Shown: positions 12,781 to 60,143 of the stretch, piece after piece | How the letters are laid out: each line of letters opens with the position of its first letter | Numbering within the stretch: position 1 is the stretch's first letter | Source of the DNA: a virus | Virus record (IMG/VR): IMGVR_UViG_3300042402_007915 | Span: 83,226-147,225 of that record | Direction: 5' to 3' (one strand) | Length of the DNA stretch: 64,000 nucleotides | The notes under the pieces: model-generated | Seen by the model: only the letters and a program-made list of their open reading frames with translations | Told to the model about the DNA's origin: nothing | The model's database searches: none | Program-made: the position numbers and the translations under genes

Positions 12781-12809
12781 AAAGGGGAGGCACTAAGCCT
12801 CCCCCTTTT
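12781..12809. terminator. Bidirectional intrinsic terminator
   Basis: AAAGGGGAGGC-ACTAA-GCCTCCCCCTTTT hairpin between convergent operons, with A/T tracts on both sides. Confidence 0.85.
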
Positions 12810-16969: not shown

Positions 16970-17334
16970 TAGCGAGGCTTACCGAGTGAGTAATAGATCT
17001 TGCCGTCTCGCTCAAAGAAGTGCCAACGGGTAGAATAAGTGTAGAGGTTGGATATTCTATCTCTAATCTGAGCATCCTTCTCTTTCGAGTCCTTGCCTCC
17101 AAAAAAAGCATCCCAAGCAAACTCCAAATCACAAAAGGCAGCTCCTAAAAGCTCGGGATCTCTGACCGAAGGCGAAGTCTTTGTTGTCCTATGTAGGAAA
17201 TAGAACTCTGAGAGATTGTTAAACCAAGTAAGAAGACGCGACAAGTTTTCAGGGCTTTTTTCATATTTGGAATCAAAAGCTTCAGGAGCAGTACCCCAAA
17301 CACTACTTCTCTCAAGGTCAAGATTGAGTTTCAT
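16969..17334 (-). CDS. KLNLE-SSxW paralogue family member
   Basis: MKLNLDLERSSVW...FNNLS. Confidence 0.75.
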   Translation of the reverse strand: MKLNLDLERSSVWGTAPEAFDSKYEKSPENLSRLLTWFNNLSEFYFLHRTTKTSPSVRDPELLGAAFCDLEFAWDAFFGGKDSKEKDAQIRDRISNLYTYSTRWHFFERDGKIYYSLGKPR

Positions 17335-17696
17335 CGATCATGCCTGTAGGCAGTAAATCCTGAACTCGTCCGCCTTGCCGTATAAAGTTTGACTTGATGT
17401 CTATGCACAGAATGGCAATAAAGCTCTTGAATCTTATGAAATAGGCGTAAATCATCTTTCCCGTCAAAGGCGGCAAGAACCTCTGCTGTGGTAAAGCTGT
17501 CTCTCATCAAACTAGGATAGGGCCGCGCATCAATTGCGACGTTCAACTCGGCGGCTCTTTTTTGAGCAAGCGTATAAAGTAGGCCGTTAAGATAGACAAG
17601 GAGTTCAACACTCTTTTGTTGTTCTTGCTCTTGTGGAGTGAGCTCAGGCAAAGTATGCCAAATAGAAGATGGTTCCCCAGTCAAATTAAGTTTCAA
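17331..17696 (-). CDS. KLNLE-SSxW paralogue family member
   Basis: Likely TTG start at 17696: MKLNLTGEPSSIW...SVHRHQVKLY. Confidence 0.7.
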   Translation of the reverse strand: MKLNLTGEPSSIWHTLPELTPQEQEQQKSVELLVYLNGLLYTLAQKRAAELNVAIDARPYPSLMRDSFTTAEVLAAFDGKDDLRLFHKIQELYCHSVHRHQVKLYTARRTSSGFTAYRHDR

Positions 17697-18099
17697 AACT
17701 ACAAGCCCACTGCCTAAAGATACGGAATTCATTCTCAGCTTCTTCAAAGACGTAAAGGTATACCTTTTCTCTGTGAACACTCGAAAGATACAAGTTCCGA
17801 ATCGAAAGGATAAAACCATCCAAGGCTTCAAGGCGAAGATCTGCATCCGGAGAGGTTGATAAGTTGGCTTGTAAAGTTTCAAAAATAGATAGAATTGTAT
17901 CCTTATCCCAACTGTCGATTTGGATACGAGGCTCTGTTTCATAATTGATAGAAATCTGCAACTCATCCGATCTGCGAGCAGCTTCCCCTAAGGAGAGATT
18001 ATTCAAAAACTCAAGAATACTAGGAAACTCAGAGTTGGTAGAATGTGTCCTTGAAACATCCCACATAGTGGTAGGCTCTCCTTCTAGATTGAGCTTCAT
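17686..18099 (-). CDS. KLNLE-SSxW paralogue family member
   Basis: MKLNLEGEPTTMW...LNNLS...SVHREKVYLYVF. Confidence 0.8.
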   Translation of the reverse strand: MKLNLEGEPTTMWDVSRTHSTNSEFPSILEFLNNLSLGEAARRSDELQISINYETEPRIQIDSWDKDTILSIFETLQANLSTSPDADLRLEALDGFILSIRNLYLSSVHREKVYLYVFEEAENEFRIFRQWACSFET

Positions 18100-18500
18100 T
18101 TCTCTTGTCTCCCCATGTCTAAAGATGTTTGTGTTTTCTCTCGAAAAGTATAGAGCTGTACCTCGTGGAAATGGTTTGCAGATCCATATCTTAGCCTAAT
18201 CATTTCACGGAGCTGTTGATAGTGATTCCAATCTGCCAAAGTAACATCACCGACTTCAGTGGAGCCATAGGTATAAGCGCCTAAGGCCTGTGAAAGGGGC
18301 AGCTCCCTAACTGAAACAAAAGGCTCTGTCTGAAAATTGATATTCACTCCTAAACGGTTAGCTCTAAGATGGGCTTCGTCTAGAGACAATTGGTTCAAGA
18401 AAGTAATAAGCCTAGAGTGAGGAGTTTCCGGAGTCTGTGTAGTTGGTACATTCCAAAAAGAGGAGAGCTTCCCTTCAGCGGGAATAATAATGTGTACCAC
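18096..18500 (-). CDS. KLNLE-SSxW paralogue family member (altered N-terminus)
   Basis: Probable GTG start at 18500; KLSSFW...LNQLS...HFHEVQLYTF. Confidence 0.7.
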   Translation of the reverse strand: MVHIIIPAEGKLSSFWNVPTTQTPETPHSRLITFLNQLSLDEAHLRANRLGVNINFQTEPFVSVRELPLSQALGAYTYGSTEVGDVTLADWNHYQQLREMIRLRYGSANHFHEVQLYTFREKTQTSLDMGRQEK

Positions 18501-18864
18501 GCCTTCCTGCCTCGATATAATTACCGGAGACCCTAAAGACATAAGGCTTCACTCCATTGTCATGAATCGAATTGAGATACCAACTTCTTATCCTAGCGAC
18601 AATATTTGTATAGGATCGAGAAGTCTGACTTTCATCCTCATAGGCTAAAAGAACGTCGCTGCGTAAAATCCCTGCAACCCAAAATGGATCAGAAGGCAGA
18701 CACTCTAGTCCGCTACCTAACTGTGCAGCTCTTTCGGCTGCTAACCTGTAAGAAAGAAGACAAAGAAATTTCAGAAGCTGGTCTTCTTCATCTGATTCAG
18801 CAACGACCTGAGGTGAGGGTGCATCCCAAATGGTAGAACGTGGGGATTCAAGATTCAGTTTCAC
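18475..18864 (-). CDS. KLNLE-SSxW paralogue family member (first of the array)
   Basis: GTGA overlap; VKLNLESPRSTIW...SIHDNGVKPYVF. Confidence 0.75.
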   Translation of the reverse strand: MKLNLESPRSTIWDAPSPQVVAESDEEDQLLKFLCLLSYRLAAERAAQLGSGLECLPSDPFWVAGILRSDVLLAYEDESQTSRSYTNIVARIRSWYLNSIHDNGVKPYVFRVSGNYIEAGRRGTHYYSR

Positions 18865-28698: not shown

Positions 28699-29448
28699 TC
28701 AGTCCTTAAGGATTTCGGGTTTGCATTCCGTGAGAGCCGCAATAACCAAGTCTTCAATCTTGGCAAAATTCTTCTTAGGGGCGGGCTCAATAATCTCGTC
28801 AATGAGGCCAAACTTAAGTGCCTCCTTGGTTGTCATGGAGAAGTCAATGTTGTTCTCGAAATACTTCTTGAACTTCTTCTTTGACATCCCAGAGCGTTGA
28901 ATAACAAGCTTCTTCAACCGCTTGGCAGTAAGCTGATACTGCCTGTAGTTAGTAGCTGCCTGGATCGGGTTGACTGTCATATTCATTGAAATGGCCTCAT
29001 GCCAGAACAGTCTTGTGTTTGGGTATGCAAGACGGCAGTTGCCAGCCTGGAGGATAAGGAAGCCCGCAGATGCACAGTCGCCCATTGCAATAGTTACAAT
29101 CGGGCAAGGAGAAGATACTAGCGTGTCGTAAATAGCAAAGAATGCAGTTACGTCTCCGCCTCCCGAATTGACATAAACGTAGATCGGAAGAGTATCACTG
29201 TCCTGCTGTAGAGACCAAATCTGGGTACAAATAGCTGCGGCCAGTTGCTCGTTGAACTCTCCAGTAATCAGAACAGATCGACTTTCTCTTCCAAGGCCGA
29301 CTACTGAGTTCGGCGTCCAATCCTCAGGGGCCGAAATACCTGTGATCATACCAGACTCGCTACCCTCTAGAAGCTCGGTATCTGAACCCTCATCATTTTC
29401 CGGGTCACAATCCATATTGACTTTCGTCAGAGGCCTAAAAGTTGTCAT
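28699..29448 (-). CDS. clpP: ClpP-family serine protease
   Basis: YVNSGGGDV, CASAG (Ser), FWHE (His), IDFSMTTKEALKFGLIDEI (Asp). Confidence 0.9.
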   Translation of the reverse strand: MTTFRPLTKVNMDCDPENDEGSDTELLEGSESGMITGISAPEDWTPNSVVGLGRESRSVLITGEFNEQLAAAICTQIWSLQQDSDTLPIYVYVNSGGGDVTAFFAIYDTLVSSPCPIVTIAMGDCASAGFLILQAGNCRLAYPNTRLFWHEAISMNMTVNPIQAATNYRQYQLTAKRLKKLVIQRSGMSKKKFKKYFENNIDFSMTTKEALKFGLIDEIIEPAPKKNFAKIEDLVIAALTECKPEILKD

Positions 29449-37009: not shown

Positions 37010-38296
37010 TTAAAATGCTTTCTTGGGTGGGTTTGAAGATCCAAGCGCGTATACGTTGGAGAAGTTGCGAAGAGTATTTCCCTGTGCGTCTTGCCATAGA
37101 ACAGCATAGCCATTCTGTGAACCGCCGCTATAGGAAAGATGAGGAGTATGTGCGTAATGCATAGGTCCAGCAAAGCAACCCTGCTCCATGATCAAGAGCC
37201 TGTCGTAAACGAACTTAGAAATCTTGTGGGTGTGTCCGATAACAACAGTATCAATTTCCTCTTCGGGATACCTTGAGCTAAAATAGTTGGCGGTCTTGTG
37301 TGCCAAGCTTGCAATGCCGCCCGAACCCCTGGTGTGAGGATGGGCAAAGATTGCTTTACCTACCTTACAGTACCAAGAATCTCGAAGGTCGAAATGCACG
37401 TTGTCGAAGTCATGCTTCTTAACAAGCTTCCCAGCAGCATTGATCTCTTCACCATTTGCAATACGCCCAAGAGCAGAAGGATTGAAATAGCTTACCGTAT
37501 TCTTGTTGATACCGTTCTCAGAGAGTACACGCGCAACGCGGCTTTCGTGATTACCCTCGGTAAGAATAACCTTCTCAAAGTTCTCGCTGCACCACTTCAC
37601 AAGAGCAAAAGCGCAACGGTATTCATCTACAATAGTAATCTCACGACTCTTCGAATAAGAAGAAGCAGAGTATCCCTCAAGGATATCTCCATTCAAGACG
37701 AGAACACTAGCGTCTGTATGGAGGGAAAGAGTCTCCTCAAGGAGATCTACCCTTGCAAACGGGAAGTGAATATCTGAAACGGAGACAATCTTGCGAACAG
37801 GTTCTCCTGTCTCATCCCCAATGGTTACCATTGGGTTGGGGTACTTGTTCTGAATGGTCTCGATCAGATCGAATGCGTTGGTTTCTGACAATGGCGACTC
37901 CTTCTTCGAAGGCTCAGTAGACGTAGCAACTACCGGGGTGGGAATAGGAGTCTTCTTCGTAGGAATGAAGACTCTGCTCGGGCCCTTAAACTGGGCAATG
38001 CGATTACCAGCCCTGTTAACGGGGAACGTATAGTTGGCAGTGTTTCGAATAGCCTCTACAAAGTAGGGGTCATTTCTATGACGGCTATACCAACGAGAGA
38101 TTGCCTTCTCAGAACGCTGGCTTCCAATAGCACGCAGAGCAGCTACGGCCTTGTCCATCGGCTGGTTTTCATCTCCAGTGCCAGCAAGACCAAAGCCATA
38201 CCAGCCCCTTTCCCAGACCTTATACTTCTCTGCGATGAGCATAACAGCAAAGGCCTCGTCATCTGACCAAGGATCGCCGAATTGATGTTTGTTCAT
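37010..38296 (-). CDS. Calcineurin-like metallophosphoesterase with N-terminal HTH-like region
   Basis: SDIH, NGDI, GNHE, GHTH motifs. Confidence 0.85.
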   Translation of the reverse strand: MNKHQFGDPWSDDEAFAVMLIAEKYKVWERGWYGFGLAGTGDENQPMDKAVAALRAIGSQRSEKAISRWYSRHRNDPYFVEAIRNTANYTFPVNRAGNRIAQFKGPSRVFIPTKKTPIPTPVVATSTEPSKKESPLSETNAFDLIETIQNKYPNPMVTIGDETGEPVRKIVSVSDIHFPFARVDLLEETLSLHTDASVLVLNGDILEGYSASSYSKSREITIVDEYRCAFALVKWCSENFEKVILTEGNHESRVARVLSENGINKNTVSYFNPSALGRIANGEEINAAGKLVKKHDFDNVHFDLRDSWYCKVGKAIFAHPHTRGSGGIASLAHKTANYFSSRYPEEEIDTVVIGHTHKISKFVYDRLLIMEQGCFAGPMHYAHTPHLSYSGGSQNGYAVLWQDAQGNTLRNFSNVYALGSSNPPKKAF

Positions 38297-40749
38297 TGTT
38301 TACCTCCATAGATTGTTATTTCTCTAGCAAGGATTTCAGCAGTTTGGTTCTCTTCGTCTTCGTCAGAGTCTGACGACTTGATGAGGCCCGAGACCTTTAA
38401 GATCATCCCAGATTCTAGTTTTACGTTTGGGTACTTAGCTTCTAGCTTCTTTACGCCTTCTGCGAAAATCAGTACTGTGGCAAAAGACGTGCCGTCTTCG
38501 ATTTCAATAAGACCCATGCGACTACCCTTCTTTGTAGTCTTAATCTTTGCTGATACAATTGCGCCCGCAAAAATACCTCTATCGTCAGGTCTTGCATTGA
38601 TCAAGAATTCTGCTTCTGGGTAGATAGTGTGGGCCGGATGTTTGCCTAAGTAGCAGCCAATAGCTTGTCCCTGTTCAAGCTGTTCCTTGAGAGAAAGCTG
38701 AGCGTTATAAGGCCTAACTGGGAAGGTAATGAAATGCGGCATCTCTTTATGTTTAAGCTCTGGCTTGCGTCTGAGGTCCTTATGTTCTTCGAGGAAGGTT
38801 TCTTCTTCGAGAGTAAGAGGCGCGGCTTTCTTTAGCGACTTTTGATGCCGAAGCTTGTCGCGTCTTTCAATGAGTGGCAATACGATAGCCATCTCTTTGT
38901 CTCTCTCAAGGATCTCAGCTTCTCTTTCATGATAGGCAATCAGATCAGGCTTGTAAGCAAAGATCAGCTCCATCATCTCTAACAAGTGTTCTCTGTAATG
39001 ACCGAAGCAATCCATAGCCCCACTCTGTACAAGAGCAGTGAAAACCTTAGTGTTCATTTTAGTCTGGTTTGTTCTGTTCATGAAATCTTGAAGGTCTTCA
39101 AATGGCTTAGATCCTCGGATCTTTAAGATGTGGCTGACTGCAGAGCCGCCAACATTCTTGATTCCATTCAAACCAAACCTAATACATGTTGGATTGATAA
39201 TCTCAAAATGGTTTCCTGACTCGTTGATGTCTGGGCAAAGCACGTCAATATCAAACTGACGCGCTTCATCAATGTACTCCATCACTTTAACACGCCACAT
39301 CTTTGGCGACATCATTCTAGATCCAACAGACATCAGAGCACAGAAGTACTCAACGGTGTGGTTCGCCTTCAGGTAGGCACACACATAAGACAAGTACGAA
39401 TAGGCAACGGAATGGGAGGCATTGAACAAGTAGTCCGCACAACCAATGATAATGTCCCACAAACGGGAGACTTGCGCTTCAGAAAGGCCGTACTTCGCAC
39501 AACCAGCAAAGAACAGAGGCTGTAGCTTCTCTAGGTACTTCTTGTCCTTCTTACCTACAGCCCTTCTTGCAGTATCGGCGTCCTGGAGAGAAAGGCCTGC
39601 AACTTCAGTGAAGAGCTTAATGAGCTGCTCTTGGTAAACAAGAACGCGCCTAGTATTACTCCACATATCTGCGATAACCGCAGGAATTTCAGGATCGGAT
39701 TCTCTATTCAAGTAACGATCTAAGAAGCCTGCCGACATTGGACCTGGACGTACAAGCGCCGAAATGTCCGAAAGCTCAGCAACGCTTGTTGGTTTAGCTT
39801 TCATTACGGCATCTCCAATAAGAGATGAGGTCTCGAACTGAAAGACGCCGGTAAGCAGCCCACGAGCAAAGAGAGCGTAAGTCCTCTTGTCGTTGTCAGG
39901 GATGTTGTAGATGTCGATAGAGAGGCCCTTACGCTTTTGTATAAGTTCAACAGCTACCTGGAGTACGTCCAAGGTCTTAATGATCAAGAAGTCGTACTTG
40001 ATTAAACCAAGCGCCTCAACTTCCTTCATATCAAACTGGGTAACCCGAAGCTTATCTGCAGTCGTATAAGTCGGCGCCACTAAATGTACAGGGAAATCTG
40101 AAATGATCATACCAGCAGGATGAACACCATTATTCGAAATCATACCATCTAGGTTGTAAGTGAAATCGAACCACTCAGAATACTTGGCGTCTTCTAGTAA
40201 CTCAGGATGTGCAGGATATCCCTTCTCCGGGTTCCCCTTGACAACTTCCTTAAGGGTTGGCTCTTTACCAAACAAAGGGTCAGGAATCTTTGCAAGGATT
40301 TCATTTCGAACAGCAAGATGAGAGTCCTTGGCTTTGTCTCCAAGTTCTTTGTCTGGCATCCAGATAGAGAAATATCTTTGAGTTAAAGAGCGAGGCCCAA
40401 ACTTACCGTGAGTACCAATGTTGGCGACGTTATCGATGCCCCAAAGGTTGACAATGTGGTCAATGAGCTTTGTCCGACCACTCTCGGAAAAGTCCATATC
40501 GATGTCTGGAGCTGCTCCACCGATAGTGTCACTTCGTCCTTGCTGAAAATCAAAATCATCAGTTAGCCCCAAAGTAAATAAGAGTAAACTGTTGCGCTCG
40601 TTAACCTTAAAGAATAGACTCTTCTCTAAACAAAAGAGTAATCTCTCGACGTCTGCTTCTGTGGTAAATTCGAGTTCGTAATCTAGAAAGTCTTTATCCA
40701 CAAGAGCGACTCGTTCCTCTAGCAGCGAAGAACGTATCTTCTCTTTCAT
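38293..40749 (-). CDS. dnaE: DNA polymerase III alpha, C-terminal fragment (palm/fingers/HhH/OB)
   Basis: AAGGAGG SD with ATG at 40749; PDIDMDF, GVHPAGMII, KYDFL, GVFQFE, RPGP, YQEQ, YLFNASHSVAY, RFGLNGIKNVG. Confidence 0.92.
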   Translation of the reverse strand: MKEKIRSSLLEERVALVDKDFLDYELEFTTEADVERLLFCLEKSLFFKVNERNSLLLFTLGLTDDFDFQQGRSDTIGGAAPDIDMDFSESGRTKLIDHIVNLWGIDNVANIGTHGKFGPRSLTQRYFSIWMPDKELGDKAKDSHLAVRNEILAKIPDPLFGKEPTLKEVVKGNPEKGYPAHPELLEDAKYSEWFDFTYNLDGMISNNGVHPAGMIISDFPVHLVAPTYTTADKLRVTQFDMKEVEALGLIKYDFLIIKTLDVLQVAVELIQKRKGLSIDIYNIPDNDKRTYALFARGLLTGVFQFETSSLIGDAVMKAKPTSVAELSDISALVRPGPMSAGFLDRYLNRESDPEIPAVIADMWSNTRRVLVYQEQLIKLFTEVAGLSLQDADTARRAVGKKDKKYLEKLQPLFFAGCAKYGLSEAQVSRLWDIIIGCADYLFNASHSVAYSYLSYVCAYLKANHTVEYFCALMSVGSRMMSPKMWRVKVMEYIDEARQFDIDVLCPDINESGNHFEIINPTCIRFGLNGIKNVGGSAVSHILKIRGSKPFEDLQDFMNRTNQTKMNTKVFTALVQSGAMDCFGHYREHLLEMMELIFAYKPDLIAYHEREAEILERDKEMAIVLPLIERRDKLRHQKSLKKAAPLTLEEETFLEEHKDLRRKPELKHKEMPHFITFPVRPYNAQLSLKEQLEQGQAIGCYLGKHPAHTIYPEAEFLINARPDDRGIFAGAIVSAKIKTTKKGSRMGLIEIEDGTSFATVLIFAEGVKKLEAKYPNVKLESGMILKVSGLIKSSDSDEDEENQTAEILAREITIYGGKQ

Positions 40750-40755
40750 GCAACC

Positions 40756-42439
40756 TCCTTGGGGGAAAATGTCTGCCCATACCGAAATTTCATCTTCAGA
40801 GCTGCCAGTTTTGCCTGACGATGCTCGAGTCCTTCGCAAGCTGCGTCGTATTCAAGACGGTGGCGAGATTAGGTATGCAGATATTTTTGCTGGGTGTGGT
40901 GGTATTTCTCTTGGTTTCTTGACAGCTGGGTTCAAGCCGGTCGGATCTATTGAGTGTGACCCCTGGGCAGCCAAGTCACACGGAACAAACTTTGGACCCC
41001 ATTCTGCAGGGGCTGATCGTCCGGCACTTCATATCCCACGCGATGCTGTTACTGAAACCGCTGAAAGCTTTTTTGCTGACCTCGGGATTAGTGGCGAGAC
41101 AGAAGATCAAATAGATGTATTGGTTGGCGGCCCACCTTGCCAAGCATTCGCTCGTGTCGGCAGAGCCAAGCTTCGAGAGCAAGCTCGCCTTCGAGATGAA
41201 GTCACAGCGGACCAAGCCTTTCTTGTAGATGGACGTGTAAACCTTTGGGAGCGTTATGTTGCATTCATTAGGGCTACAAAGCCAGTAGCTCTTCTTATGG
41301 AAAATGTCCCAGATATCCTGAATCATGGTGGGGCTAATGTTGCAGAGCTTGTAGCCAAAAGCCTTGAGAAGGAAGGGTATGACGTTGTATACACTCTGCT
41401 AAACGCTGCTTGGTATGGCGTACCGCAGATAAGAGAACGGATGATACTTGTCGGCTTTCACAAGGCAACAGGTATCAGGCCTCGATTCCCAACACCTACG
41501 CACTACCTTGATTTGCCGTCTGGTTATGTCTCTCTAAGGAATACTGCACGCCGAGTAATCAAGAGCGAAGGCTCAGATTATCACCGCTGGGTAGATGGGC
41601 CTTCAAGCTTAGCAATGCCTGCAACTTCCGCTGCCGATGCTTTAGCTGACCTTCCGGTCTTCTGTGCGCAAGATCTTTTACACTCTGGCAAGTTGCGTCG
41701 TGGCCCTAAAGATTTATCCGAACAGATTGATTACACAACAAACGAACCAGCTACTTCCTACTCTAGGTTAATGAGGGAATGGTTCGGGTTTGCAACGAAA
41801 GCGGCGACTAGCCATGTCTTCCGCTACTTACCACGAGACTACAAAATCTTCGCTGAAATGAGAGCCGGGTGGGAGTACCCAGCGATTCATGCTCATGTAG
41901 AGCACAAAATTACAGAGTGGCTAGCTGAACGTAAACGCTGTGGTCTCTCTACCGACCTCTCAGATCCTGAAGTGAACAGCTTTGTTACGAGTTGGCGTCT
42001 ATCCTCTGATCCCCACAAGTTCCCAAACAAGTGGTGGAAGATGGAAGCCAACAAACCCGTACGAACTTTGATGGCTCACCTTGGGAAAGACTCCTACTCA
42101 CACATTCACTTTGACTCTGAGCAAGCTCGGACTATCACAGTCCGTGAGGCGGCTCGGCTTCAGTCTTTCCCTGATGGATTTGTATTTGAAGGCTCAATGA
42201 ATCCTGCGTTTAAGCAAATTGGTAACGCTGTGCCGCCGTTATTTGCTTACGCTATTGCACGAGCGATGCTAGAATGCTTAGCAGCCCCTACTGTTCCCGA
42301 CATGCGGGTTGAGTTGCTTGGGTTATCCGCTTCGCAGATTACGACAACTCGGGGAACTCCATGATGTTCGTAAGCACTGCAACACTTAAAAAGTCTTTAC
42401 TCGCAAGAGCGACTCGCTCTTATCCTTGGGGGGAAAATG
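40756..42439 (+). repeat. Near-identical 16/17-bp direct repeats flanking the methyltransferase
   Basis: TCCTTGGGGGAAAATG at 40756-40771 and TCCTTGGGGGGAAAATG at 42423-42439. Confidence 0.7.
40769..42364 (+). CDS. dcm: DNA (cytosine-5)-methyltransferase
   Basis: FAGCGG, GGPPCQ, ENV, PQIRER, REAARLQSFPD, QIGNAVPP; ATG at 40769 after GGGGG. Confidence 0.95.
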   Translation: MSAHTEISSSELPVLPDDARVLRKLRRIQDGGEIRYADIFAGCGGISLGFLTAGFKPVGSIECDPWAAKSHGTNFGPHSAGADRPALHIPRDAVTETAESFFADLGISGETEDQIDVLVGGPPCQAFARVGRAKLREQARLRDEVTADQAFLVDGRVNLWERYVAFIRATKPVALLMENVPDILNHGGANVAELVAKSLEKEGYDVVYTLLNAAWYGVPQIRERMILVGFHKATGIRPRFPTPTHYLDLPSGYVSLRNTARRVIKSEGSDYHRWVDGPSSLAMPATSAADALADLPVFCAQDLLHSGKLRRGPKDLSEQIDYTTNEPATSYSRLMREWFGFATKAATSHVFRYLPRDYKIFAEMRAGWEYPAIHAHVEHKITEWLAERKRCGLSTDLSDPEVNSFVTSWRLSSDPHKFPNKWWKMEANKPVRTLMAHLGKDSYSHIHFDSEQARTITVREAARLQSFPDGFVFEGSMNPAFKQIGNAVPPLFAYAIARAMLECLAAPTVPDMRVELLGLSASQITTTRGTP

Positions 42440-44648: not shown

Positions 44649-44682
44649 GGCCCCCTGGGTTTCCCCAGGGGGCCTTTGCTTT
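44649..44682 (+). terminator. Intrinsic terminator for the + strand island
   Basis: GGCCCCCTGGG-TTTC-CCCAGGGGGCC followed by TTTGCTTT on +; no U-tract on -. Confidence 0.8.
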
Positions 44683-45940
44683 ATCTAATACTGTTGATTG
44701 CAGTAATCATATCAGAAGAGAAATGGAGAGGAGTTGCCCCACGGCCTGGGTTAAGAAACCGCTCGAACAACAAACCAAACTTAATAGGATCGACCTGAGT
44801 AATACCGAGAGCCCAACAAACCAGAGAGCCTGCTGCGGACCCACGACCGGGGCCGCAGTAAACGTTAAGCTCGGAACGGGCAGTGTTAATGAACCAAGAC
44901 ACCAGGAGAATATAGTCGGAGAAGCCCAGACGCTTAATCGAGGCAAGCTCAAAGTAAAGCCGCGCAATGTATTCATCTGGAGGGCGCACTCCACCGAACC
45001 TTGCTGACAAACCAAGCTTGGCCTGATTAGCTAATGCATCCCATGAAAGCTCTCCTTCCTCAAGGAAAGGGAACTTAGGAAAGTGATTAATCTGATCCTT
45101 GAAATAATCGTCAGTAACCAAGTCGGCGACATGAGAAGTATTTGTAATGGCTTCGAGAGGCAACCCCAGGGTCTTAACCCTTTCGGTCATCCACTCCTCA
45201 CTACAAAGATGCACGTCAATATCTCCAAATGAAAACCGCTTAGGGTCAGTCATTGTCTTATTGGACTGCATGCAAAGATACTGCTCGTGTAAGGTCTTAT
45301 GCTCAGGATGTGTATAGTGAGTATCATTCGCTACGATAAGGGGTAACCCTTTTCGATGAGCCATTTTAATTAGCTCTGCATTCAGCTCTGTTTGTTCTGG
45401 TCCTTCATGGGGTTGAAGTTCCGCAAACAGTCTGTCTCCGAATACCTCTATGTGTTGATCAATTAAGTATTCAGCCTGTGCTGTTTCATGGTTCAGAATT
45501 AACCTTGAGAAGGAGGAGCCGAGGCAGGCTGTGGTGGCCATAAGGCCGTCTGAGTGATCGGCCAAAAGTTCCAAGTCCACTCTTGGCTTGAAGTACATTC
45601 CTTCGGAATATGCGCGCGAAGAAAGCTGAGAAAGGTTCTTCCAGCCCACATCGTTTTGCGCCAATAAAATCAAGTGATAGTAAGATCGCTCGTCAAAGTC
45701 TTTCTCCTTAGACGTGCGATTGGCTGTGTAGTAAGCCTCCATGCCAATGATAGGTTTAATACCTTCAGCACGGCAGGCTTTCACATGAGCATAAGCTCCT
45801 GCGACATTACCATGATCGGTAATCGCAAGAGCCGTTTGCCCCATCTCCTTTACTACTCGAGGAATCCGTTCTACCCGGTTCATCCCGTCTAGAGTTGAAT
45901 AAGCCGTGTGAACGTGTAAGTGAGTAAAGGAGCCGGCCAC
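44681..45940 (-). CDS. dnaE: DNA polymerase III alpha, N-terminal fragment (PHP domain)
   Basis: HLHVHTAYSTLDG, ITDHG, NDTHY, GPGRGSAAGSLV, LLFERFLNPGR, then a stop 19 codons later. Confidence 0.93.
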   Translation of the reverse strand: MAGSFTHLHVHTAYSTLDGMNRVERIPRVVKEMGQTALAITDHGNVAGAYAHVKACRAEGIKPIIGMEAYYTANRTSKEKDFDERSYYHLILLAQNDVGWKNLSQLSSRAYSEGMYFKPRVDLELLADHSDGLMATTACLGSSFSRLILNHETAQAEYLIDQHIEVFGDRLFAELQPHEGPEQTELNAELIKMAHRKGLPLIVANDTHYTHPEHKTLHEQYLCMQSNKTMTDPKRFSFGDIDVHLCSEEWMTERVKTLGLPLEAITNTSHVADLVTDDYFKDQINHFPKFPFLEEGELSWDALANQAKLGLSARFGGVRPPDEYIARLYFELASIKRLGFSDYILLVSWFINTARSELNVYCGPGRGSAAGSLVCWALGITQVDPIKFGLLFERFLNPGRGATPLHFSSDMITAINSIR

Positions 45941-52304: not shown

Positions 52305-52331
52305 AAGGCCCCCTTACAAGAAGGGAGCCTT
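52305..52331 (-). terminator. Probable terminator ending the Ubl operon
   Basis: AAGGCCCCCTT-ACAAG-AAGGGAGCCTT imperfect hairpin, then ATATTT on -. Confidence 0.55.
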
Positions 52332-52336: not shown

Positions 52337-52630
52337 CTAGCAGGTGCCTACAAGGGCAGCGTGCGTGATAAATGGAACAAGAGAGAAAGCTCCCTTGACG
52401 GACTTGTTGACACCAATCTCCGACCAAGCGCGGAGGGTAGTGCCAGCAAAACTGGCCTCGGGGATGGGAGTCCCGTCGACGTCGACGTCGTACTTCTGGC
52501 CGCCGGGGTTCCAGTCGGCCAGGGCCTTGGCGATCGTGGGATCGCTGAAGACCTGGCGAAGAGTGCCGTTCTCGGGGAGTTCAACGGGAAGCTTGCGACC
52601 ACCAGGGGTCAGGGTGACGATTACTCGCAT
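52337..52630 (-). CDS. Ubiquitin-like (beta-grasp) protein with C-terminal extension
   Basis: MRVIVT...VELPENGTLRQV...VDG......LRAWSEIGV..VKGA plus a 16-aa tail; adjacent to E1. Confidence 0.7.
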   Translation of the reverse strand: MRVIVTLTPGGRKLPVELPENGTLRQVFSDPTIAKALADWNPGGQKYDVDVDGTPIPEASFAGTTLRAWSEIGVNKSVKGAFSLVPFITHAALVGTC

Positions 52631-53388
52631 GTTTGATCCTTACGATGACGTGTAGTAACGGAGATTCCGTTTGTACAGTCAATAATGATCTGTAGCGGGA
52701 ACTTGAAATCGGTAGACTCAGAAGCTTCCCACTCTCGAACGCACTCGACGAAGAGATGGGTAGCAGAACCGACTAGGAGAGAGACCGGCGCCGGACAAAT
52801 CTTCATCGTACAAGGGAGCTCAGTAACCTCGTTATCATCCTTCAAGGTATGATACCACGCCTCGTTAGTCTCAAGACTCTCGAGGGGGTACAAGAAGAAG
52901 GAGCGGCCAAAATCGAAACCCAAGCGGAAGTCGATAATGACCGGAACGATTGCGCCGGACTCTCGTACGAGCTTCCTAATCTGATCAACGATTGAACGCC
53001 GAGCAGAGAAGGAGTCAACACCCAAGAAGACGAAGCCGCCACGACCAGTCTTGTGAGCCATATCGGTAGTCTCGGTGAACTTACCGTGAAGGTGACAGAC
53101 GATGTCGGACCGGAAATCAGTAAGAACAAACTCAAGCGCTTCGGTCTTAAGCATACCAATCTGGTAGCGACCAAAGGCCTGATTGGCACAGTTGTAGTCT
53201 TCGACTACATCTCCGTCGTAAAGATGAAACTCGGTAAACCCGAGTCGAGCAAGCAACATAGCTGCATTGCTTCCAACAGCTCCACACCCTACGATGTGGA
53301 TAGGAGGCCGATCCTTCTTCTCCCCGAACCAAGCTGAATGCCTGGTGAAGGAAGGTTCAGGTGTAACCCTATCGTCTTGTCTTTTCAT
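52621..53388 (-). CDS. E1/ThiF-family Ubl-activating enzyme
   Basis: VGCGAVGS, YDGDVVEDYNCANQ, K.EAL, GVDSFSARR, DFR.G, and candidate catalytic ELPC. Confidence 0.9.
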   Translation of the reverse strand: MKRQDDRVTPEPSFTRHSAWFGEKKDRPPIHIVGCGAVGSNAAMLLARLGFTEFHLYDGDVVEDYNCANQAFGRYQIGMLKTEALEFVLTDFRSDIVCHLHGKFTETTDMAHKTGRGGFVFLGVDSFSARRSIVDQIRKLVRESGAIVPVIIDFRLGFDFGRSFFLYPLESLETNEAWYHTLKDDNEVTELPCTMKICPAPVSLLVGSATHLFVECVREWEASESTDFKFPLQIIIDCTNGISVTTRHRKDQTCE

Positions 53389-55157
53389 GCCAACCCCGCA
53401 GCAAACTCTTCCCAGCCCGCAAAAGGATTCTGATCGTCCTTTTCAGCGGTATCGGGAACTGGAACGAGTGACGTCGTCAAAGCCTTTTGAACTGACCCGC
53501 CCGAAGGGACAGAATCAGAACCAGACTCAAAGATATAGGTAAGGCGGAAGACATCGTTCTTGAACGAGTCGATAAGGATATCTACAGTATCCGTCAGCAT
53601 CCTTTGCGAGAGGGCATCCGGAGAAACCATAAAGGTGGCAAGCTGGAAGGCGTAGAAATAAACCATGAACGAATGAGTAGTGATGTTCTGATCGTTCAAG
53701 TGAGCAGCAAATTTAGCTCGGTTAGGATGAGTAGTAACAGAGTTCTGCTTAATGGTTTCACAAATGCTAGTGATATACTCAATGCTTAGAACCTGAGTAA
53801 GAACGGCTTTCAGGCTGTTAACAACGACAGTAGCTTCAGTGGCGGTCGTGGTAGCGTCTTTGCGGAAGAGGAAAGTACCGAGTAGATGCGAGAAATTAAG
53901 GAAGTGCAAGAAGACTTCGTCCTTATGCAAATCGTTTACGGTCGCATTGCTGAACGTGTACGAATATTCCTGGTTAACAAAGTAGGAATAGACCTGCTTC
54001 TCTGTCTCAAGTTTCCGTACGTTCTGGGTGTCATAGAAACACTCAAAGAAGCAAAGAAAGACTCGGTAGAGAGAATCTGTGCGATGCTTATAGGCTTGCG
54101 CCTCAAGCATCTTGCCGTAAAGGCCAAGCATTGGGGTTCGCCATTCGCAAACCGAGAGAAGATCGAAGGGCGTGTAAGTAGTGGAAGCATGGCCAAAGGA
54201 CTTCATCCCCTGGCTCTTTTGAAAGTCTTCAATAAGTTCGCAAGCATCATCAACGGCTTCAATGCAAGTGGCTGCTCCAGCAAGCTCTTCTTGCACATTG
54301 ACAGTAGGCCTAAAGGTACTATAGGTACCAAAGGTGTCAAAGAGCTTCCGGTAAGCATCGAATAGAGGCGGAGAAGACAAGGAGATCGGAGTCTTCGTGC
54401 TATCGCTTTTGGAAGAACTCGAGCTCTTGCTCGTCCCGTATCCCTGCCACTGCTGAGAAGAATAAGTGGTGGCCTTAGGCCTGACGCGACTCTTGCAAAC
54501 TTCGGTCAGGCCTTGGGAAAAACCCGGATCAAGCAACTGAACCGGAATAGCCTCGAGTTCGCGACCGATCTCTGCATCCCGAATGCGAACGAATAGCTGT
54601 CCGTCAAGGTTGAAAATAAGCATCGCACAAACGGGAGAGTCGGTGAAAGCAGACTTCCACTCCTCCCACTGAGTGTTATCCGTGCCCGAAGGGGTTGCGG
54701 TCATCTTTACGTGGGAATGACACCACGTATTGTAAGACCGGAAGTACTCATTGGCACGCTCCATGCGCGTGCCGTATTCTTCGAAGCTGATAACTTCTAC
54801 GGTGTTCGGCTCACTGCCGGCAACAGTAACCGTAGTATCGTCACGCTCAAGGCGAAGACAACCAAAGCGGCGCTCAATATCCTTGCCAAGCTTGGGAGCA
54901 TCCACAGCGTTGGACTCAACGTAGGTGCCCTGAACTTCTTGCCAAGGAACCTCGGGGACACCCTTGAATCGGTAAATCACTTCTTCAGCATTGCGTCGAG
55001 CAACCTCGAGCTGAAGATAGAACTGAATCTCAGAGGGAGGGGTCAACCCTCCGGCGTAGCCGCAAACCGCAAGCGCGTCGATCCACGTCTGTGTATCCAT
55101 AAACGCCCTGGGGGTCGGCTTGACAAGAAAAGTCCCTTGCATCTTAGGACTAAGCAT
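53385..55157 (-). CDS. JAB/MPN+ metallopeptidase with large C-terminal helical domain
   Basis: ATG at 55157 (GGAGG SD); SEIQF Glu, QEV, WCHSHVKMTATPSGTD. Confidence 0.8.
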   Translation of the reverse strand: MLSPKMQGTFLVKPTPRAFMDTQTWIDALAVCGYAGGLTPPSEIQFYLQLEVARRNAEEVIYRFKGVPEVPWQEVQGTYVESNAVDAPKLGKDIERRFGCLRLERDDTTVTVAGSEPNTVEVISFEEYGTRMERANEYFRSYNTWCHSHVKMTATPSGTDNTQWEEWKSAFTDSPVCAMLIFNLDGQLFVRIRDAEIGRELEAIPVQLLDPGFSQGLTEVCKSRVRPKATTYSSQQWQGYGTSKSSSSSKSDSTKTPISLSSPPLFDAYRKLFDTFGTYSTFRPTVNVQEELAGAATCIEAVDDACELIEDFQKSQGMKSFGHASTTYTPFDLLSVCEWRTPMLGLYGKMLEAQAYKHRTDSLYRVFLCFFECFYDTQNVRKLETEKQVYSYFVNQEYSYTFSNATVNDLHKDEVFLHFLNFSHLLGTFLFRKDATTTATEATVVVNSLKAVLTQVLSIEYITSICETIKQNSVTTHPNRAKFAAHLNDQNITTHSFMVYFYAFQLATFMVSPDALSQRMLTDTVDILIDSFKNDVFRLTYIFESGSDSVPSGGSVQKALTTSLVPVPDTAEKDDQNPFAGWEEFAAGLA

Positions 55158-57645
55158 TGAGCAGCTCCTCCTTTGCCTCGACCTTGGTGGTCTCGGTCTT
55201 CTTTTCGATACAAATCGGCAGCACAAAGCTATTGAAATCAACCCTGTTTTCTGACGTGATCTTGTAATCGAAACGGAACCGAGTAGTTTTCAGGACCTTG
55301 ATTCCAATATTAGTTTTGTCAACCGTATCCAACCTAAAGAGGTTGTCTACGCAGTCCCAAACCACAGATCTCTTCAGCTCAGCAAAAATCTGTGGGAAGT
55401 TAATCTGAACTTGGGTGTCTGTTTGAACAATACCCTTAGAATCAGCAGGTACCGTGAGAAGAGCATATGGAGTGATTTGAGCCGGATCATAATGTCCTAG
55501 CGCAGTAGAAGACTTGGCTAGCGATGCATAAACGTTTTCGACAAGAACAGAAACGGTTCCATCTTTCGGGTTGTAGTAACCGCGCAGAGGAGCCAACACC
55601 TTCTCAGCGACAAGGACTTTTTCCTGAGGCTGACCCACAAGGCCACGAAGAGTTGTGTGTAGCGGAGACTGTGACAAGTACGCGCGAATAAATTCATTAG
55701 ACCAAGCATCATCTGGGCCTGTGTTGTTCTTAATCCAACTAAGAGCAGCCTTGAGAGTAGAGAGGAGATCGCCACTCTCCATAAAGGGAGACACAAAACC
55801 TCCAAAGGTTCCTGTGCAAGGTCTGCTCCAGCCTTGGATTTCGACTGCAGAGCCGATATGGGGATGGAGTTTATAGTTCGAAACCTTATACATGACTGTG
55901 TCTTCGAGGCCACGAATCATGAGACTCGAATCTTCGACGATGACCTCGAACGGACCCACAAGCGCAATGTGGTCTTTGGGTTTCGAATCGAGGACGTTCA
56001 CGATAGGAGTCGATAGAGTGAAATGCACCTTGTGCAAACACTTTACCTGGAAGGGATTGAAATCGGCAGGAATGTTTGGCACGAGTTTACCATTTTCCTG
56101 CGTGAAGGTAATGTAAACCCGATTACCGTTTTGCATACCATAATGCACTTCATGGATAGTAATCGAATTCAGTTTACAGAAGTTAATGAAAGAAGTGGTG
56201 ACATGCTGCGCCGTACGGTCTACAGGAAGAACGGAAGCAAACAGCGTAGCAATCTCTGTCGGAGGAAGAATCTTGGCTTTGTAACTGGCAATGTTCCCGT
56301 TTAACGCAGTGATAGCAGTTTCATGCTCGGTAATGCTTCTTTGTAGGGCTTGGATATCTCTTCTGCAGCGTTCGATAGAGGCTCGACGAACGTCAAGGCT
56401 GTCCTCGCAAGACTTAATTTGCTTCTCTAGGTTGCTTTGGTTTAGCAGAGTATCTGCTACCGCCTGAATCTCAGAAGGGTAGTTGGTATACACCCCTCGT
56501 GCGACTCTGGAGACCATTGCAACCTTAGGAAGGAAATCTTGTGGCATGCTAGGCTCTACAAACTTCGAAGCCAGAGACAGCTCGCCAGGACGCTTAGCCA
56601 AGTCTCCGAGCTTAGGAACGTGAATCTTACGCTGAAGATAAGTCCTTACGCCCCTCAGCTGAGTGAGAACGGTCTGCGCAAAGATAGTCGGGTCTACCTC
56701 AAAGTCTTTTGTAAGAATGAGAAGCTGGCCTGCATAGACCTGAGTGTAGTAGACCCTGCCGTCTTCTTCGAAGCCTCTGAACGGGACTGGCTTATCTTCA
56801 CACCAGTAGACCTCTCCGGCCGAAGTGCAAACAAACCTTCTAAAGACATGAGTAAATTGATACTGTTTCATAATGGCTTCACTACAACGCAGAACAACTA
56901 CATCTTGCCTTCGGGCGGGATTGCCCTTGTGCTCAAGAGAATAGAAGGTCTGTACGTCGTCGGGATAAAACATCTTGAATCTGTGTGAAAGCAGCGCCCA
57001 ACCAGGCTCGCTTACTTCTTCACGGTCCATCCCAAAATGGAAATTGCGAACAGTGTGAAGGCAGAACGTATCGTATGGACTGTATTTCCTATCGGCATTA
57101 TAAAGGGCCTTTGTCTTAGGCTCTTCCAAAAATGCCGCTAGGATGCTCGCCCAAACAGTAGCTTCAAAGTATTTCAGATCCTGGAAGAACGCTTCCGGGG
57201 CTTTATAAACGTACGGGAAAGCAGTCTTGTTACCGCCGTTGTAATTTACATTTCTGGGACGATAGCGCTCCCCAGTAGCAGCAAACTGAAGAACAGAATA
57301 AGACTGACTGGTAGAGTTAGACCGATAAAGAGAAGTCCAATCACCAAGACTGTGCTTACGACCTCTTGGCAGACGACCAAAGTTGTAACTATTTGGGAAT
57401 GTCGTCTTGAGGGTATCAAAAGCATCAAGGATAACATCGGCAACAGCCTGAACCGATTCGGCAGTGTCATCATCATTCCAAGAGAAGGGAATGTTAGTGT
57501 AGGTCCGCGAATCGTGATCAAACAACATGAGAACGATACCATGTCTATAGTAAGTAAGGTTTGTTTGCAAAAGTGACGAAATGGCAGAGAGTCCTGCACT
57601 AGGACACTCCGCCACATCGATATGGACAGCGCCGACTACCGCCAT
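55150..57645 (-). CDS. Large protein with coiled coil and prokaryotic E2-like domain
   Basis: ATG at 57645 (GAGGAG SD); central coiled coil; LHPHI-x(11-12)-PCTG motif resembling the E2 HPN...C motif. Confidence 0.55.
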   Translation of the reverse strand: MAVVGAVHIDVAECPSAGLSAISSLLQTNLTYYRHGIVLMLFDHDSRTYTNIPFSWNDDDTAESVQAVADVILDAFDTLKTTFPNSYNFGRLPRGRKHSLGDWTSLYRSNSTSQSYSVLQFAATGERYRPRNVNYNGGNKTAFPYVYKAPEAFFQDLKYFEATVWASILAAFLEEPKTKALYNADRKYSPYDTFCLHTVRNFHFGMDREEVSEPGWALLSHRFKMFYPDDVQTFYSLEHKGNPARRQDVVVLRCSEAIMKQYQFTHVFRRFVCTSAGEVYWCEDKPVPFRGFEEDGRVYYTQVYAGQLLILTKDFEVDPTIFAQTVLTQLRGVRTYLQRKIHVPKLGDLAKRPGELSLASKFVEPSMPQDFLPKVAMVSRVARGVYTNYPSEIQAVADTLLNQSNLEKQIKSCEDSLDVRRASIERCRRDIQALQRSITEHETAITALNGNIASYKAKILPPTEIATLFASVLPVDRTAQHVTTSFINFCKLNSITIHEVHYGMQNGNRVYITFTQENGKLVPNIPADFNPFQVKCLHKVHFTLSTPIVNVLDSKPKDHIALVGPFEVIVEDSSLMIRGLEDTVMYKVSNYKLHPHIGSAVEIQGWSRPCTGTFGGFVSPFMESGDLLSTLKAALSWIKNNTGPDDAWSNEFIRAYLSQSPLHTTLRGLVGQPQEKVLVAEKVLAPLRGYYNPKDGTVSVLVENVYASLAKSSTALGHYDPAQITPYALLTVPADSKGIVQTDTQVQINFPQIFAELKRSVVWDCVDNLFRLDTVDKTNIGIKVLKTTRFRFDYKITSENRVDFNSFVLPICIEKKTETTKVEAKEELLNA

Positions 57646-58094
57646 GCGGTTTCTCCTCTGTGATACAGCTCTCTTGTGTAATAAAAGAAAAGAAAACGGG
57701 TCTCTTGCCTTATTGTTAGATGCGAGTAGTAGTGATCCCAAAGGGGTTTGAAATAGAGGAAAGTTTCTTCAGCTAAAGCCTTCCTCTTGTTCTCTAGGTC
57801 TCCCAAAGAAAGCTCTGCTTCTAATGGAAAGGATAGATTAGTGAAGTCTTCAGGCCTACGGTAGAAGCACTCGATAAGCGATTCTTCAAATATGTCGGGA
57901 GGCAAAGAAAACCCCCTCGAAGTCGTATGAGAGATTAAGCCAAAATCTCTGAAAAACTTCGAGGGGGTCAGCTGTGTTTCCTCGACCTCAAGGAATTCCA
58001 AGTACATCTTGAGTGTACTTTCTTCTACTACTGAAGGAGTAGGAACAAAGAGTCCTAAATAGAACCGTTCCCTTGCCTTTTCCGAATTGGTCAA
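57636..58094 (-). CDS. Hypothetical protein in the Ubl operon
   Basis: Overlaps its neighbours on both sides. Confidence 0.55.
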   Translation of the reverse strand: MTNSEKARERFYLGLFVPTPSVVEESTLKMYLEFLEVEETQLTPSKFFRDFGLISHTTSRGFSLPPDIFEESLIECFYRRPEDFTNLSFPLEAELSLGDLENKRKALAEETFLYFKPLWDHYYSHLTIRQETRFLFFYYTRELYHRGETAWR

Positions 58095-58330
58095 TAAGCT
58101 CCTTCAGGGACCTCAAGGAGGGGACCGTAGCACACTGGACAGGTGGCTGCAATTTCTTCAGCCTCCACAGCGTCGGCAACAGTCTCCCAAGCACACCTTG
58201 TGTCAAGGCAGGCTAGAAGGTACCTTTCCGAACCGAAGGCCTGAAAGGACAGACCACCAGAATCAGAAACCAATTCTGGCTGTTGTACGGATTGGTCTAG
58301 CGGTTTGTTCTTTGAGGTAAGCGGCATCAA
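58091..58330 (-). CDS. Small zinc-ribbon protein (start uncertain)
   Basis: CLDTRC...CPVC. Confidence 0.55.
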   Translation of the reverse strand: MMPLTSKNKPLDQSVQQPELVSDSGGLSFQAFGSERYLLACLDTRCAWETVADAVEAEEIAATCPVCYGPLLEVPEGAY

Positions 58331-60143
58331 TTAAAACCTTTGAGGTACCGTGAAGGTAAATAGAAGTAACTGCCTTCTTCAGAATACGGCGCACCCTCAG
58401 CTCAATCTGTCGTAACTGAACCTCTTCGATAAGAGTTTCAATTGCTTCGTCTGCAAACTTGATGTCGTAATCATAAGGGCTTGTTAGCAGATTATACTCT
58501 GCGTAGATATTGGGAATCATATACTTTGTTAGGATAATCCGGCGCTCATCTTTTGTGTACTCACGAAACCGAATGATCTCCATACGGTCCTTCAAGGCTG
58601 GGGGGATATCCTCTTCTTCATTCGCGGTACAAATGAACAACACCTTAGACAGATCAATCGGCAGCTCAAGGTATCTATCAGAGAAACTTGTGTTCTGCTG
58701 AGGGTCTAAGATCTCAAGAAAAGCTGCTGTTACTGGACTATATGACCCGCGCATAGGTGTCTTGTCAATCTCGTCAAGAATGATAAGTGGATCCATACAC
58801 TTGGCCTGCTGGAGAATAGAAACAATCCTACCTGCCTTGGAGGAAACATAAGTCCGCCTATGACCGCGGACTTCTGCCTCATCGGTAAGACCACCCAGCG
58901 GTAACGAAAAGCAAAGGCGATTACTAGCCGTAGCAATACTCTTGGCGATAGAGGTCTTGCCAGTGCCAGCAGGACCAGTGAAACAAAGGACACCACCAGT
59001 TTGTCGGCCAGTAATCTTTTCAATAACAAGATGCTCTGTTAGCACATCCTTAACCTCACCAAGTCCGTAATGAGTAGAATCCATTAACGACCTAAGATTT
59101 GGAAAGTCAATCTCTTTGGCTCGAGTGACTCCCCAGGGAAAAGACAGTATCTGATCGGTCCAGTCCAAGAGGTTATTCGCCTCTTGTCCAGTAGCTCGAG
59201 ATAGCTTCTTCAACTCGTAGAGCAGCTTCTCCTTATGAGTCGCAGGAATAGCATTGAGCCGAGCCTTATTCTCGGTTGAGATATCAAAATCATAAACAGG
59301 CTCTGAATCTTCCTTCTTCTTTTTGGGGGTAGAAGTCTTCTTTGGAGCCTTATCTTCGGGCTTAACCTTGAGAGGAGCGCCTGTAAAAGAGGAAATGACA
59401 TCTCGTCGTGAATTGAATAGATCGGAAAGGGCCGCAGAAAGGATGGTCCACTGGTCGTGTAGACTTCTCGTCTGCCCTTCTCCGTCAAAGAACAAATTGA
59501 GCCAAGAGTCAACATTGTTCTTGTATAGGAAATAGGCCGTTACATAAGCAAAGGAAACATACTTGTTTTGGTAGCTTTCGTACTCTGGTGGATGGCCTGC
59601 TAGTGGCTGCAAAGCAAAGATTGTTTGCTCCTTGCCAAAAGAGTCAGAGTAACAGTGGCCAAAATAGTTCTGGCTCTCCACCGCAATATAGGTGTTGTAA
59701 ATATCAATCAGCTCATAGCTTGGAGGGTTCTCTTCTTTGAACTGTACCTGAGCAAAATTCAACTCTATGTTTTGGTTTTCAGAGGCCGGAGAGTTGCTTA
59801 GGACGATGTTCTCGGGAGGACAGAACGCAATGATATTGCCTGAAATAAGCAAATCTTTGTTCTCGATGGCCTGCTCAATATTGTCAGAAAAATATTCAAT
59901 AGTGACTCCGGCAAAAGCGTAAAGCACTCTTGTGATCTCTGTCTCACTAGGAAACCTAAAACACAAGAGAACAAAGGTGTGCTGCCCGAAAGCAGTATTC
60001 GCAGACAAATAGTCTGTGAACTGATCAGCCGGAGCAAAGGCTAACGACCAGTTGTCTGGACCGTAATTGAAGTATCTCCCTGGGTAGGGGAATTGGATAT
60101 CGGCTCCGTCAATGTAGAAGAACGGAACACCAACGGACTTCAT
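58263..60143 (-). CDS. Lon-type AAA+ ATPase lacking the protease domain, with novel N-terminal domain
   Basis: FPW, HYGL..VK, GPAGTGKTS, DEAEVRGHRRTY, LDEIDK, LEILDPQQN, DLSKVLFICTAN, DRME; ends RIGF. Confidence 0.85.
   Translation of the reverse strand: MKSVGVPFFYIDGADIQFPYPGRYFNYGPDNWSLAFAPADQFTDYLSANTAFGQHTFVLLCFRFPSETEITRVLYAFAGVTIEYFSDNIEQAIENKDLLISGNIIAFCPPENIVLSNSPASENQNIELNFAQVQFKEENPPSYELIDIYNTYIAVESQNYFGHCYSDSFGKEQTIFALQPLAGHPPEYESYQNKYVSFAYVTAYFLYKNNVDSWLNLFFDGEGQTRSLHDQWTILSAALSDLFNSRRDVISSFTGAPLKVKPEDKAPKKTSTPKKKKEDSEPVYDFDISTENKARLNAIPATHKEKLLYELKKLSRATGQEANNLLDWTDQILSFPWGVTRAKEIDFPNLRSLMDSTHYGLGEVKDVLTEHLVIEKITGRQTGGVLCFTGPAGTGKTSIAKSIATASNRLCFSLPLGGLTDEAEVRGHRRTYVSSKAGRIVSILQQAKCMDPLIILDEIDKTPMRGSYSPVTAAFLEILDPQQNTSFSDRYLELPIDLSKVLFICTANEEEDIPPALKDRMEIIRFREYTKDERRIILTKYMIPNIYAEYNLLTSPYDYDIKFADEAIETLIEEVQLRQIELRVRRILKKAVTSIYLHGTSKVLIDAAYLKEQTARPIRTTARIGF

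Follow-up and report, generated by a model that had tools for sequence, protein, structure and literature searches.

A protease-less Lon-type AAA+ protein with a conserved C-terminal IGF tail as candidate ClpP partner in a phage

This study deals with a phage gene for a Lon-type AAA+ protein that lacks the Lon protease domain and ends in the tripeptide IGF. The gene lies in a stretch of 64,000 nucleotides (in the following: the window), which corresponds to positions 83,226 to 147,225 of the IMG/VR record IMGVR_UViG_3300042402_007915. Coordinates without a locus name refer to the window. The protein is called the motor here, and the gene has the following features:

58263 to 60143, minus strand: protease-less LonA-type AAA+ gene (626 amino acids, P0001)
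59364 to 60143, minus strand: N-terminal region, residues 1-260, beta-rich, then helical (low-confidence model, weak likeness to LON_substr_bdg)
58311 to 59273, minus strand: Lon-type AAA+ module, residues ~291-611 (Pfam, TIGR00763, PDB, AlphaFold model, Foldseek)
58953 to 58976, minus strand: Walker A motif GPAGTGKT, residues 390-397
58848 to 58850, minus strand: pore-loop Tyr432
58770 to 58775, minus strand: Walker B residues DE, 457-458
58266 to 58310, minus strand: flexible C-terminal tail, residues 612-626, ending in I624-G625-F626 (58266-58274)

An intact Lon motor without protease domain and with a conserved tail

An earlier note on this DNA had claimed a complete Lon-type AAA+ module and the C-terminus TTARIGF, without stating the strand. 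The C-terminus is found in the 626-amino-acid translation of the minus strand, and the completeness of the module is borne out by TIGR00763, the PDB, Foldseek and the motifs that are invariant in the family. The motor matches the Pfam family AAA with an E-value of 7e-21 and the model TIGR00763 ('endopeptidase La') with an E-value of 7e-90, the latter at profile positions 259-570 of 795 only and with a score of 302 bits, which is under the cut-off of 608 bits. The best profile models are those of Lon; the score with AAA_2 is below its cut-off, and PADLOC gives only a weak AAA+ match (DolB). The matches in the PDB are LONP1, PIM1 and bacterial Lon (E-values of 1e-55 to 8e-67), and the alignment with LONP1 reaches residue 623 of the motor, which corresponds to the linker toward the protease domain. 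Across most of the AAA+ module, the AlphaFold model has a predicted local distance difference test score (pLDDT) of ~85-95, and Foldseek superimposes it on Lon AAA+ rings with a root mean square deviation of 2.6-2.9 Å over ~330 residues. Among the relatives, there is no or almost no variation in Walker A, Walker B, Y432, the sensor-1 residue N508, R520 and R578. Since the AAA+ module is complete and its motifs are kept across the relatives, the motor appears to be fully functional. Its ATG overlaps the stop codon of an upstream open reading frame (ORF) of 102 amino acids by 4 nucleotides.

In a related phage of 192 kb (G003), the motor gene is interrupted by an insertion of 920 nucleotides (L024:10394-11313). 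The insertion separates the codons for RG from those for HRRTY in the pore-loop region, the most conserved ones of the gene, starts with a stop codon and encodes a Cys-rich HNH-like ORF. A group I intron that carries a homing-endonuclease gene is the probable explanation. Invasion by such introns is typical of essential, conserved phage genes.

The N-domain of ~260 residues had been described as novel, which is probably overstated. A Pfam scan of P0001 gave no match in the first ~260 residues, the Lon substrate-binding domain PF02190 included, the model of this region is poor (pLDDT 40-60), and the comparison of the N-domain with the rest of the family by hhalign was not significant (probability 5%). 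However, several relatives that align with the motor from end to end carry PF02190, and the nearest structural cluster in the Atlas is LON_substr_bdg, with a template modelling score (TM) of merely 0.34-0.37. For these two reasons, the region is probably a degenerate Lon N-domain. It is followed by a Lys-rich disordered linker (residues 253-287).

The protease domain Lon_C (PF05362) was found neither in the motor, nor in the ORF downstream of it, nor anywhere in the source record, which has 147,225 bp, is estimated to be 99% complete and was covered as a whole by this and the other inventory searches. The lack of the Ser-Lys protease domain, as claimed in the earlier note, was therefore confirmed, and a separate Lon protease-domain gene, which the note had named as a finding that would speak against its idea, was looked for in the whole record without success.

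The conservation of the tail was analysed in a family of Lon-like proteins of 500-660 amino acids without Lon_C, which were collected by word-indexed and exhaustive profile searches. A motif of the type [ILVMF]G[FYL] is present within the last 20 residues in 93 of 105 short relatives. Nine of the twelve proteins without the motif are visibly truncated full-length Lons, so that 93 of ~96 protease-less members carry it. A lack of conservation in homologues, which the earlier note had named as a possible objection, is thus not borne out. The variants are IGF (56), VGF (20), LGF (11), MGF (2), IGY (2), VGY (1) and FGF (1), with Phe in 90 of the 93 tails; G625 is invariant and F626 at least 90% conserved in the family. 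Between zero and nine residues trail the motif, and none in 33 tails. In full-length Lons from the same match lists, such a C-terminal motif occurs in just 2 of 119 sequences. The residues ahead of the motif are not conserved but basic (Lys or Arg in 43-60% at positions -3 to -1), and many tails read IGFG or IGFK/R behind a basic run. In the model of the motor, the tail is unstructured (pLDDT 55-66), and ~9 residues lie between the last helix and the IGF motif.

The joint alignment also gives a hint on the origin of the motif. In it, the tail residues [IV]G stand opposite the [IV]G with which strand one of the Lon protease domain begins (...K-I-G-V-V-x-G-L-A-W-T); the corresponding sequence of E. 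coli Lon is ...NENRVGQVTGLAWT. The tripeptide of full-length Lons at this site is VGV (75), IGV (8), PGV (6) and others. Since Phe never occurs there, the Phe of the tail would be a family-specific gain of the motif and not a passive relic. The family looks as if a clean deletion had started just within the protease domain, after which Phe became fixed and position one shifted toward Ile. According to this scenario, the deletion would have spared only the first two residues (I/V-G) of the first strand of this domain, and with the third residue fixed as Phe, the result would have been a C-terminal tail that is flexible and basic and ends in [ILV]GF.

The motor stops exactly at the boundary of AAA+ and protease domain, which is also what one would expect from a frameshift, an assembly error or the recent decay of a truncated Lon. 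Such an artefact is extremely improbable and is ruled out by the family data. Approximately 96 relatives, in clusters of ≤50% identity, on contigs of up to 200 kb and from many samples, have the identical architecture, the catalytic motifs are all invariant, and no remnant of Lon_C exists downstream or elsewhere. Moreover, the motor gene of G003 has been invaded by a homing-endonuclease intron at its most conserved codons.

The phage ClpP as candidate docking partner

The ClpX model had no match in the phage record, and no proteasome or HslV was found in it. The motor is the sole classical AAA+ unfoldase of the record, and the only chambered peptidase found there is a ClpP:

28699 to 29448, minus strand: phage ClpP, 249 amino acids (P0002), candidate docking partner (PF00574, E-value 8e-34)

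The intact Ser/His/Asp triad ascribed to this ClpP was verified by the match to PF00574 and by alignment to the E. coli enzyme, with whose residues S97, H122 and D171 the triad aligns. An SspB-like adaptor was looked for in G000-G003 and G008, and none was found.

The explanation that we favour, and consider somewhat more probable than not on the basis of the sequences, is that the motor is a partner of ClpP via its IGF tail and that the two form a hybrid Lon-motor/ClpP protease. The motor would be a hexameric LonA-derived unfoldase, whose six tails emerge from that face of the ring which normally carries the protease ring in Lon. Since the known Lon architecture places the attachment site of the peptidase ring at the small AAA+ subdomain, the tail would exit from exactly this face, which would meet a coaxial ClpP. 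Most likely, the tails would occupy the hydrophobic clefts of the ClpP heptamer in the same way as the IGF loops of ClpX, and the ClpP in question could be the phage's own, that of the host, or both. The outcome would be an ATP-dependent hybrid protease that is active in the replication phase of infection. We infer the formation of the hexamer, its docking to ClpP and the existence of substrates that are processed in this way.

The comparison with ClpX illustrates how docking might take place. The E. coli ClpX sequence reads ...ETGSGIGFGATVK and contains ...GSGIGFGAT. In ClpXP structures, I268, F270 and V274 of ClpX occupy the clefts between the subunits of ClpP, the variants I268L, F270L and V274A are severely defective in ClpP binding, and in E. 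coli, ClpP cannot bind ClpX without its residue R192 (PMC7112951). In P0002, L23, Y60, Y62, I90 and M92 of the cleft are kept and position 189 is hydrophobic. Apart from E51 and R192, the residues compared are those which we take to form the cleft in E. coli ClpP.

The earlier note had suggested to examine the co-occurrence of these genes across related phages. Motor and ClpP are both present in all eight assessable related phages (G000, G001, G002, G003, G006, G012, L058 and L205), which represent one syntenic lineage. Records were regarded as assessable if they had been searched whole or including the ClpP region; L048, L050, L059, L060, L204, L206 and L207 were left out of the ClpP count. 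The ClpP of L058 has a canonical bacterial-type sequence and does not belong to the divergent phage clade, which hints that the lineage maintains some ClpP.

Several observations weigh against a partnership of motor and ClpP. All motor-bearing phages share the backbone SSB/UDG - motor - ... - PhoH - Whirly - SpoVG, so that the cases of co-occurrence are not independent and may reflect common descent. A syntenic fragment of 97 kb (G008) has a ClpP but no motor, neither at the syntenic site nor elsewhere in the fragment, and thus ClpP does not depend on the motor. The cleft of P0002 differs from that of E. coli by the changes F49->S, F82->S, E51->Q and R192->A, a conserved Lys being present one or two residues away from the Ala that replaces R192. 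One third of the tails end at Phe and have no equivalent of V274 of ClpX, so that binding would have to differ from that of ClpX. Furthermore, sister phages have a ClpP that has lost its catalytic Asp: within the divergent phage ClpP clade, Ser and His are kept but Asp is replaced by S or A (L042:1366-2028, L045:1405-2037, L047:1375-2037; P0124), and only P0002 and its 90%-identical relative P0123 have retained it. Finally, no separate head-maturation or prohead protease was identified between the portal and capsid genes, and P0002 could be the prohead protease. One of the related records, G003, encodes two ClpP-like genes.

The last objection is part of a different explanation, according to which the motor is a stand-alone unfoldase or remodeller that works without a peptidase, while the tail serves another contact, for instance in self-regulation, with an adaptor or with a replication or DNA-bound complex, and ClpP is unrelated to it, for instance as prohead protease. 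The motor gene is located among replication genes (SSB, UDG, PhoH, Whirly) and the ClpP gene is 29-46 kb away from it in most genomes. The best PHROGs match of ClpP is a 'head maturation protease', no other head protease was found, and G008 possesses ClpP without a motor. Nevertheless, we consider this explanation rather unlikely. P0002 reaches an E-value of 1e-31 with models of ATP-dependent ClpP compared to 8e-11 with the ClpP-related head-maturation model, and its gene is part of the replication module, together with those for RusA, HNH, thymidylate synthase and primase-helicase. It shares the strand of the motor gene and is ~65 kb away from the genes for terminase, portal, capsid and sheath. 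In addition, the exact tripeptide, its basic context and its predicted position on the peptidase-facing side fit docking to ClpP.

The strongest indirect argument for the tail as a peptidase-docking device comes from giant viruses. A scan of IMG/VR revealed Lon-like AAA+ genes of giant viruses that lack Lon_C and whose proteins end in M-Y-[LVI]:

L026:8744-10996, L028:1968-4328, L031:9236-11197, L032:9350-10984, L033:1779-3422: protease-less Lon-like genes of giant viruses or large IMG/VR contigs

Among the homologues of one of these proteins, 118 of 120 end in [MLI]-Y-x at the extreme C-terminus (MYI 83, MYL 21). HbYX is the C-terminal pattern by which proteasome activators and ATPases dock on the 20S core (PMC12352868), and the tail of the giant-virus proteins reads as such a proteasome-docking pattern. 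Judged by these motifs, two independent viral lineages of protease-less Lons each have a tail that matches the kind of chambered peptidase found in their host domain. Contrary to a stand-alone function, this parallel points to peptidase docking as the selected function.

The neighbouring Ubl cassette

Downstream of the motor gene, the window contains a cassette of genes related to ubiquitin-like protein (Ubl) conjugation, which is separated from the motor by one further ORF:

57636 to 58094, minus strand: ORF of 152 amino acids of no known family, between motor and cassette
55150 to 57741, minus strand: candidate E2-like large protein with HPH...PC motif
53385 to 55241, minus strand: JAB/JAMM-motif protein, HSHx7Sx2D at residues 175-188
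52621 to 53388, minus strand: ThiF/E1-like adenylyltransferase (solid assignment; PADLOC E1-E2 matches)
52337 to 52630, minus strand: candidate Ubl of 97 amino acids, ending in ...VKGA plus a tail of 17 residues

The motor had been placed in the same overlapping gene run as E2, JAB, E1 and Ubl. This does not hold, since a gap of 168 nucleotides and the 152-amino-acid ORF intervene. A strong terminator was not found between motor and cassette; the best terminator-like hairpin of the region (52305-52331) follows the Ubl gene.

This arrangement raises the possibility of a Ubl-directed degradation, in which proteins bearing a tag from the E1/E2-like/JAB/Ubl cassette would be recognised by the motor and passed on to ClpP, as an analogue of the ubiquitin-proteasome or Pup-proteasome systems. 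Cassette and motor share one strand, a strong terminator was not found between them and the hairpin comes only behind the Ubl gene, the E1 is solid and the JAMM motif is present. Moreover, 14 of 15 loci have the cassette downstream of the motor, despite an identity of just 30-47% between the motors. However, synteny extends over the complete stretch from SSB to PhoH-Whirly-SpoVG, so that little can be concluded from adjacency in particular. The intervening genes differ between loci (Gad2-like, trypsin-like, small ORFs), and no Ubl-binding element was identified in the N-domain. An obligatory co-occurrence of motor and cassette fails in opposite directions: in L050, the motor is directly followed by PhoH and there is no cassette, while G008 has cassette, ClpP and PhoH without a motor. 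Since the modules occur apart in these two cases, an obligatory Ubl-Lon-ClpP machine is not supported, and we regard Ubl-directed degradation as unlikely. Motor and cassette are neighbours in a conserved block but separable, and a functional link between them, if it exists, would be facultative. Of the hybrid Lon/ClpP protease for Ubl-tagged substrates proposed in the earlier note, the ClpP partnership is thus supported by the conserved tail, the absence of a Lon_C gene and the presence of ClpP in eight of eight phages, whereas the Ubl part relies on gene order and is not supported, the modules being separable.

Some further observations concern the gene order in this region. A gene of the Gad2 family (anti-Gabija) is located right after the motor gene in L058 (11777-12718), L059 (11575-12402), L204 (11782-12741) and L205 (11718-12527), often with a trypsin-like gene nearby on the opposite strand; in the window, the ORF of 152 amino acids takes the place of Gad2. 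The fragment G008 (L080, G008:C1:4000-23500) has the E2-like/JAB/ThiF cassette, PhoH and a ClpP of the divergent clade, but no motor between the amidase and small ORFs on one side and the Gad2-like gene on the other.

Relatives of the locus were also searched for by other means. With the DNA polymerase as query, no relatives were found. The DNA pattern for DRMExIxFRxY recovered only two already-known IMG/VR records, and in bacterial genomes it detected ordinary full-length Lons only, since MGN also reads Ser codons; this result is uninformative on bacterial members of the family. The polymerase gene itself is split into two ORFs on the minus strand (38293-40839 and 44681-45940), of which the one of 419 amino acids corresponds to positions 43-440 and that of 848 amino acids to positions 443-1052 of phrog_405. 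The two halves are separated by ~3.8 kb of plus-strand genes, including those for a DNA methyltransferase and a tail-fibre-like protein. At 12808-18864, the window contains a run of ~13 minus-strand ORFs of similar size (~140 amino acids), which the earlier note had described as a paralogue array.

Relation to known systems and biological meaning

Lon is the textbook example of a motor that is fused to its own peptidase. With LonA (E. coli Lon, B. subtilis LonA 3m6a, human LONP1 7ksm/7sxo; TIGR00763, MEROPS S16), the motor shares an AAA+ module of 34-47% identity with the same motifs, pore loop and fold, a probable remnant of the N-domain and a tail that aligns with the first residues of the protease domain. 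In contrast to LonA, it lacks the whole Ser-Lys protease domain and has a free [ILV]GF end, with Phe where Lon has Val. LonC-type proteins represent the reverse arrangement: they keep the protease domain together with a dead ATPase, while the phage motor retains the ATPase and has lost the protease. Partial Lon architectures are also present as independent proteins in plants, as described for the LON-domain 'iLON' proteins (PMC8889267). These keep the N-domain only, whereas the phage motor keeps the ATPase and loses the protease.

The resemblance to ClpX, ClpA and ClpC consists in a hydrophobic-Gly-aromatic tripeptide within a flexible basic segment, on what would be the peptidase-facing side of an AAA+ hexamer. 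However, the AAA+ module belongs to the Lon clade and not to Clp/Hsp100, the motif is found at the C-terminus and not in an internal loop of the large domain, and neither a zinc-binding nor a Clp N-domain is present. To our knowledge, all ClpP partners belong to the Clp/Hsp100 clade. With regard to the position of the candidate docking peptide at the extreme C-terminus of an AAA+ ring, the motor resembles the proteasomal ATPases (PAN, Rpt2/3/5, Mpa/ARC, archaeal Cdc48), whose HbYX tails insert into pockets of a seven-fold peptidase ring (PMC12352868). It differs from them by having IGF instead of HbYX and by its presumed target ClpP, a 20S proteasome being absent from the phage genome. The literature, which was covered incompletely, yielded no account of protease-less Lons that end in IGF or of viral Lons with an HbYX tail.

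The most far-reaching view would combine motor, phage ClpP and the E1/E2-like/JAB/Ubl cassette into a viral tag-and-destroy pathway, in which host or phage proteins are marked with the Ubl, the N-domain reads this mark and ClpP degrades the marked protein; more broadly, viruses would repeatedly have made Lon a detachable motor with a tail matched to the available peptidase, phages using IGF to reach ClpP and giant viruses using HbYX to reach the 20S core. Taken as a whole, this view is speculative, and we judge it slightly less likely even than Ubl-directed degradation as such.

If the motor is indeed a partner of ClpP, this would mean that the pairing of AAA+ motors with chambered peptidases can change during evolution via a tail of only three residues. 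The HbYX-tailed relatives in giant viruses suggest that the same trick is used against the eukaryotic proteasome. For the phage, motor and ClpP would represent a compact, phage-encoded proteolytic system, possibly for host takeover or anti-defence.

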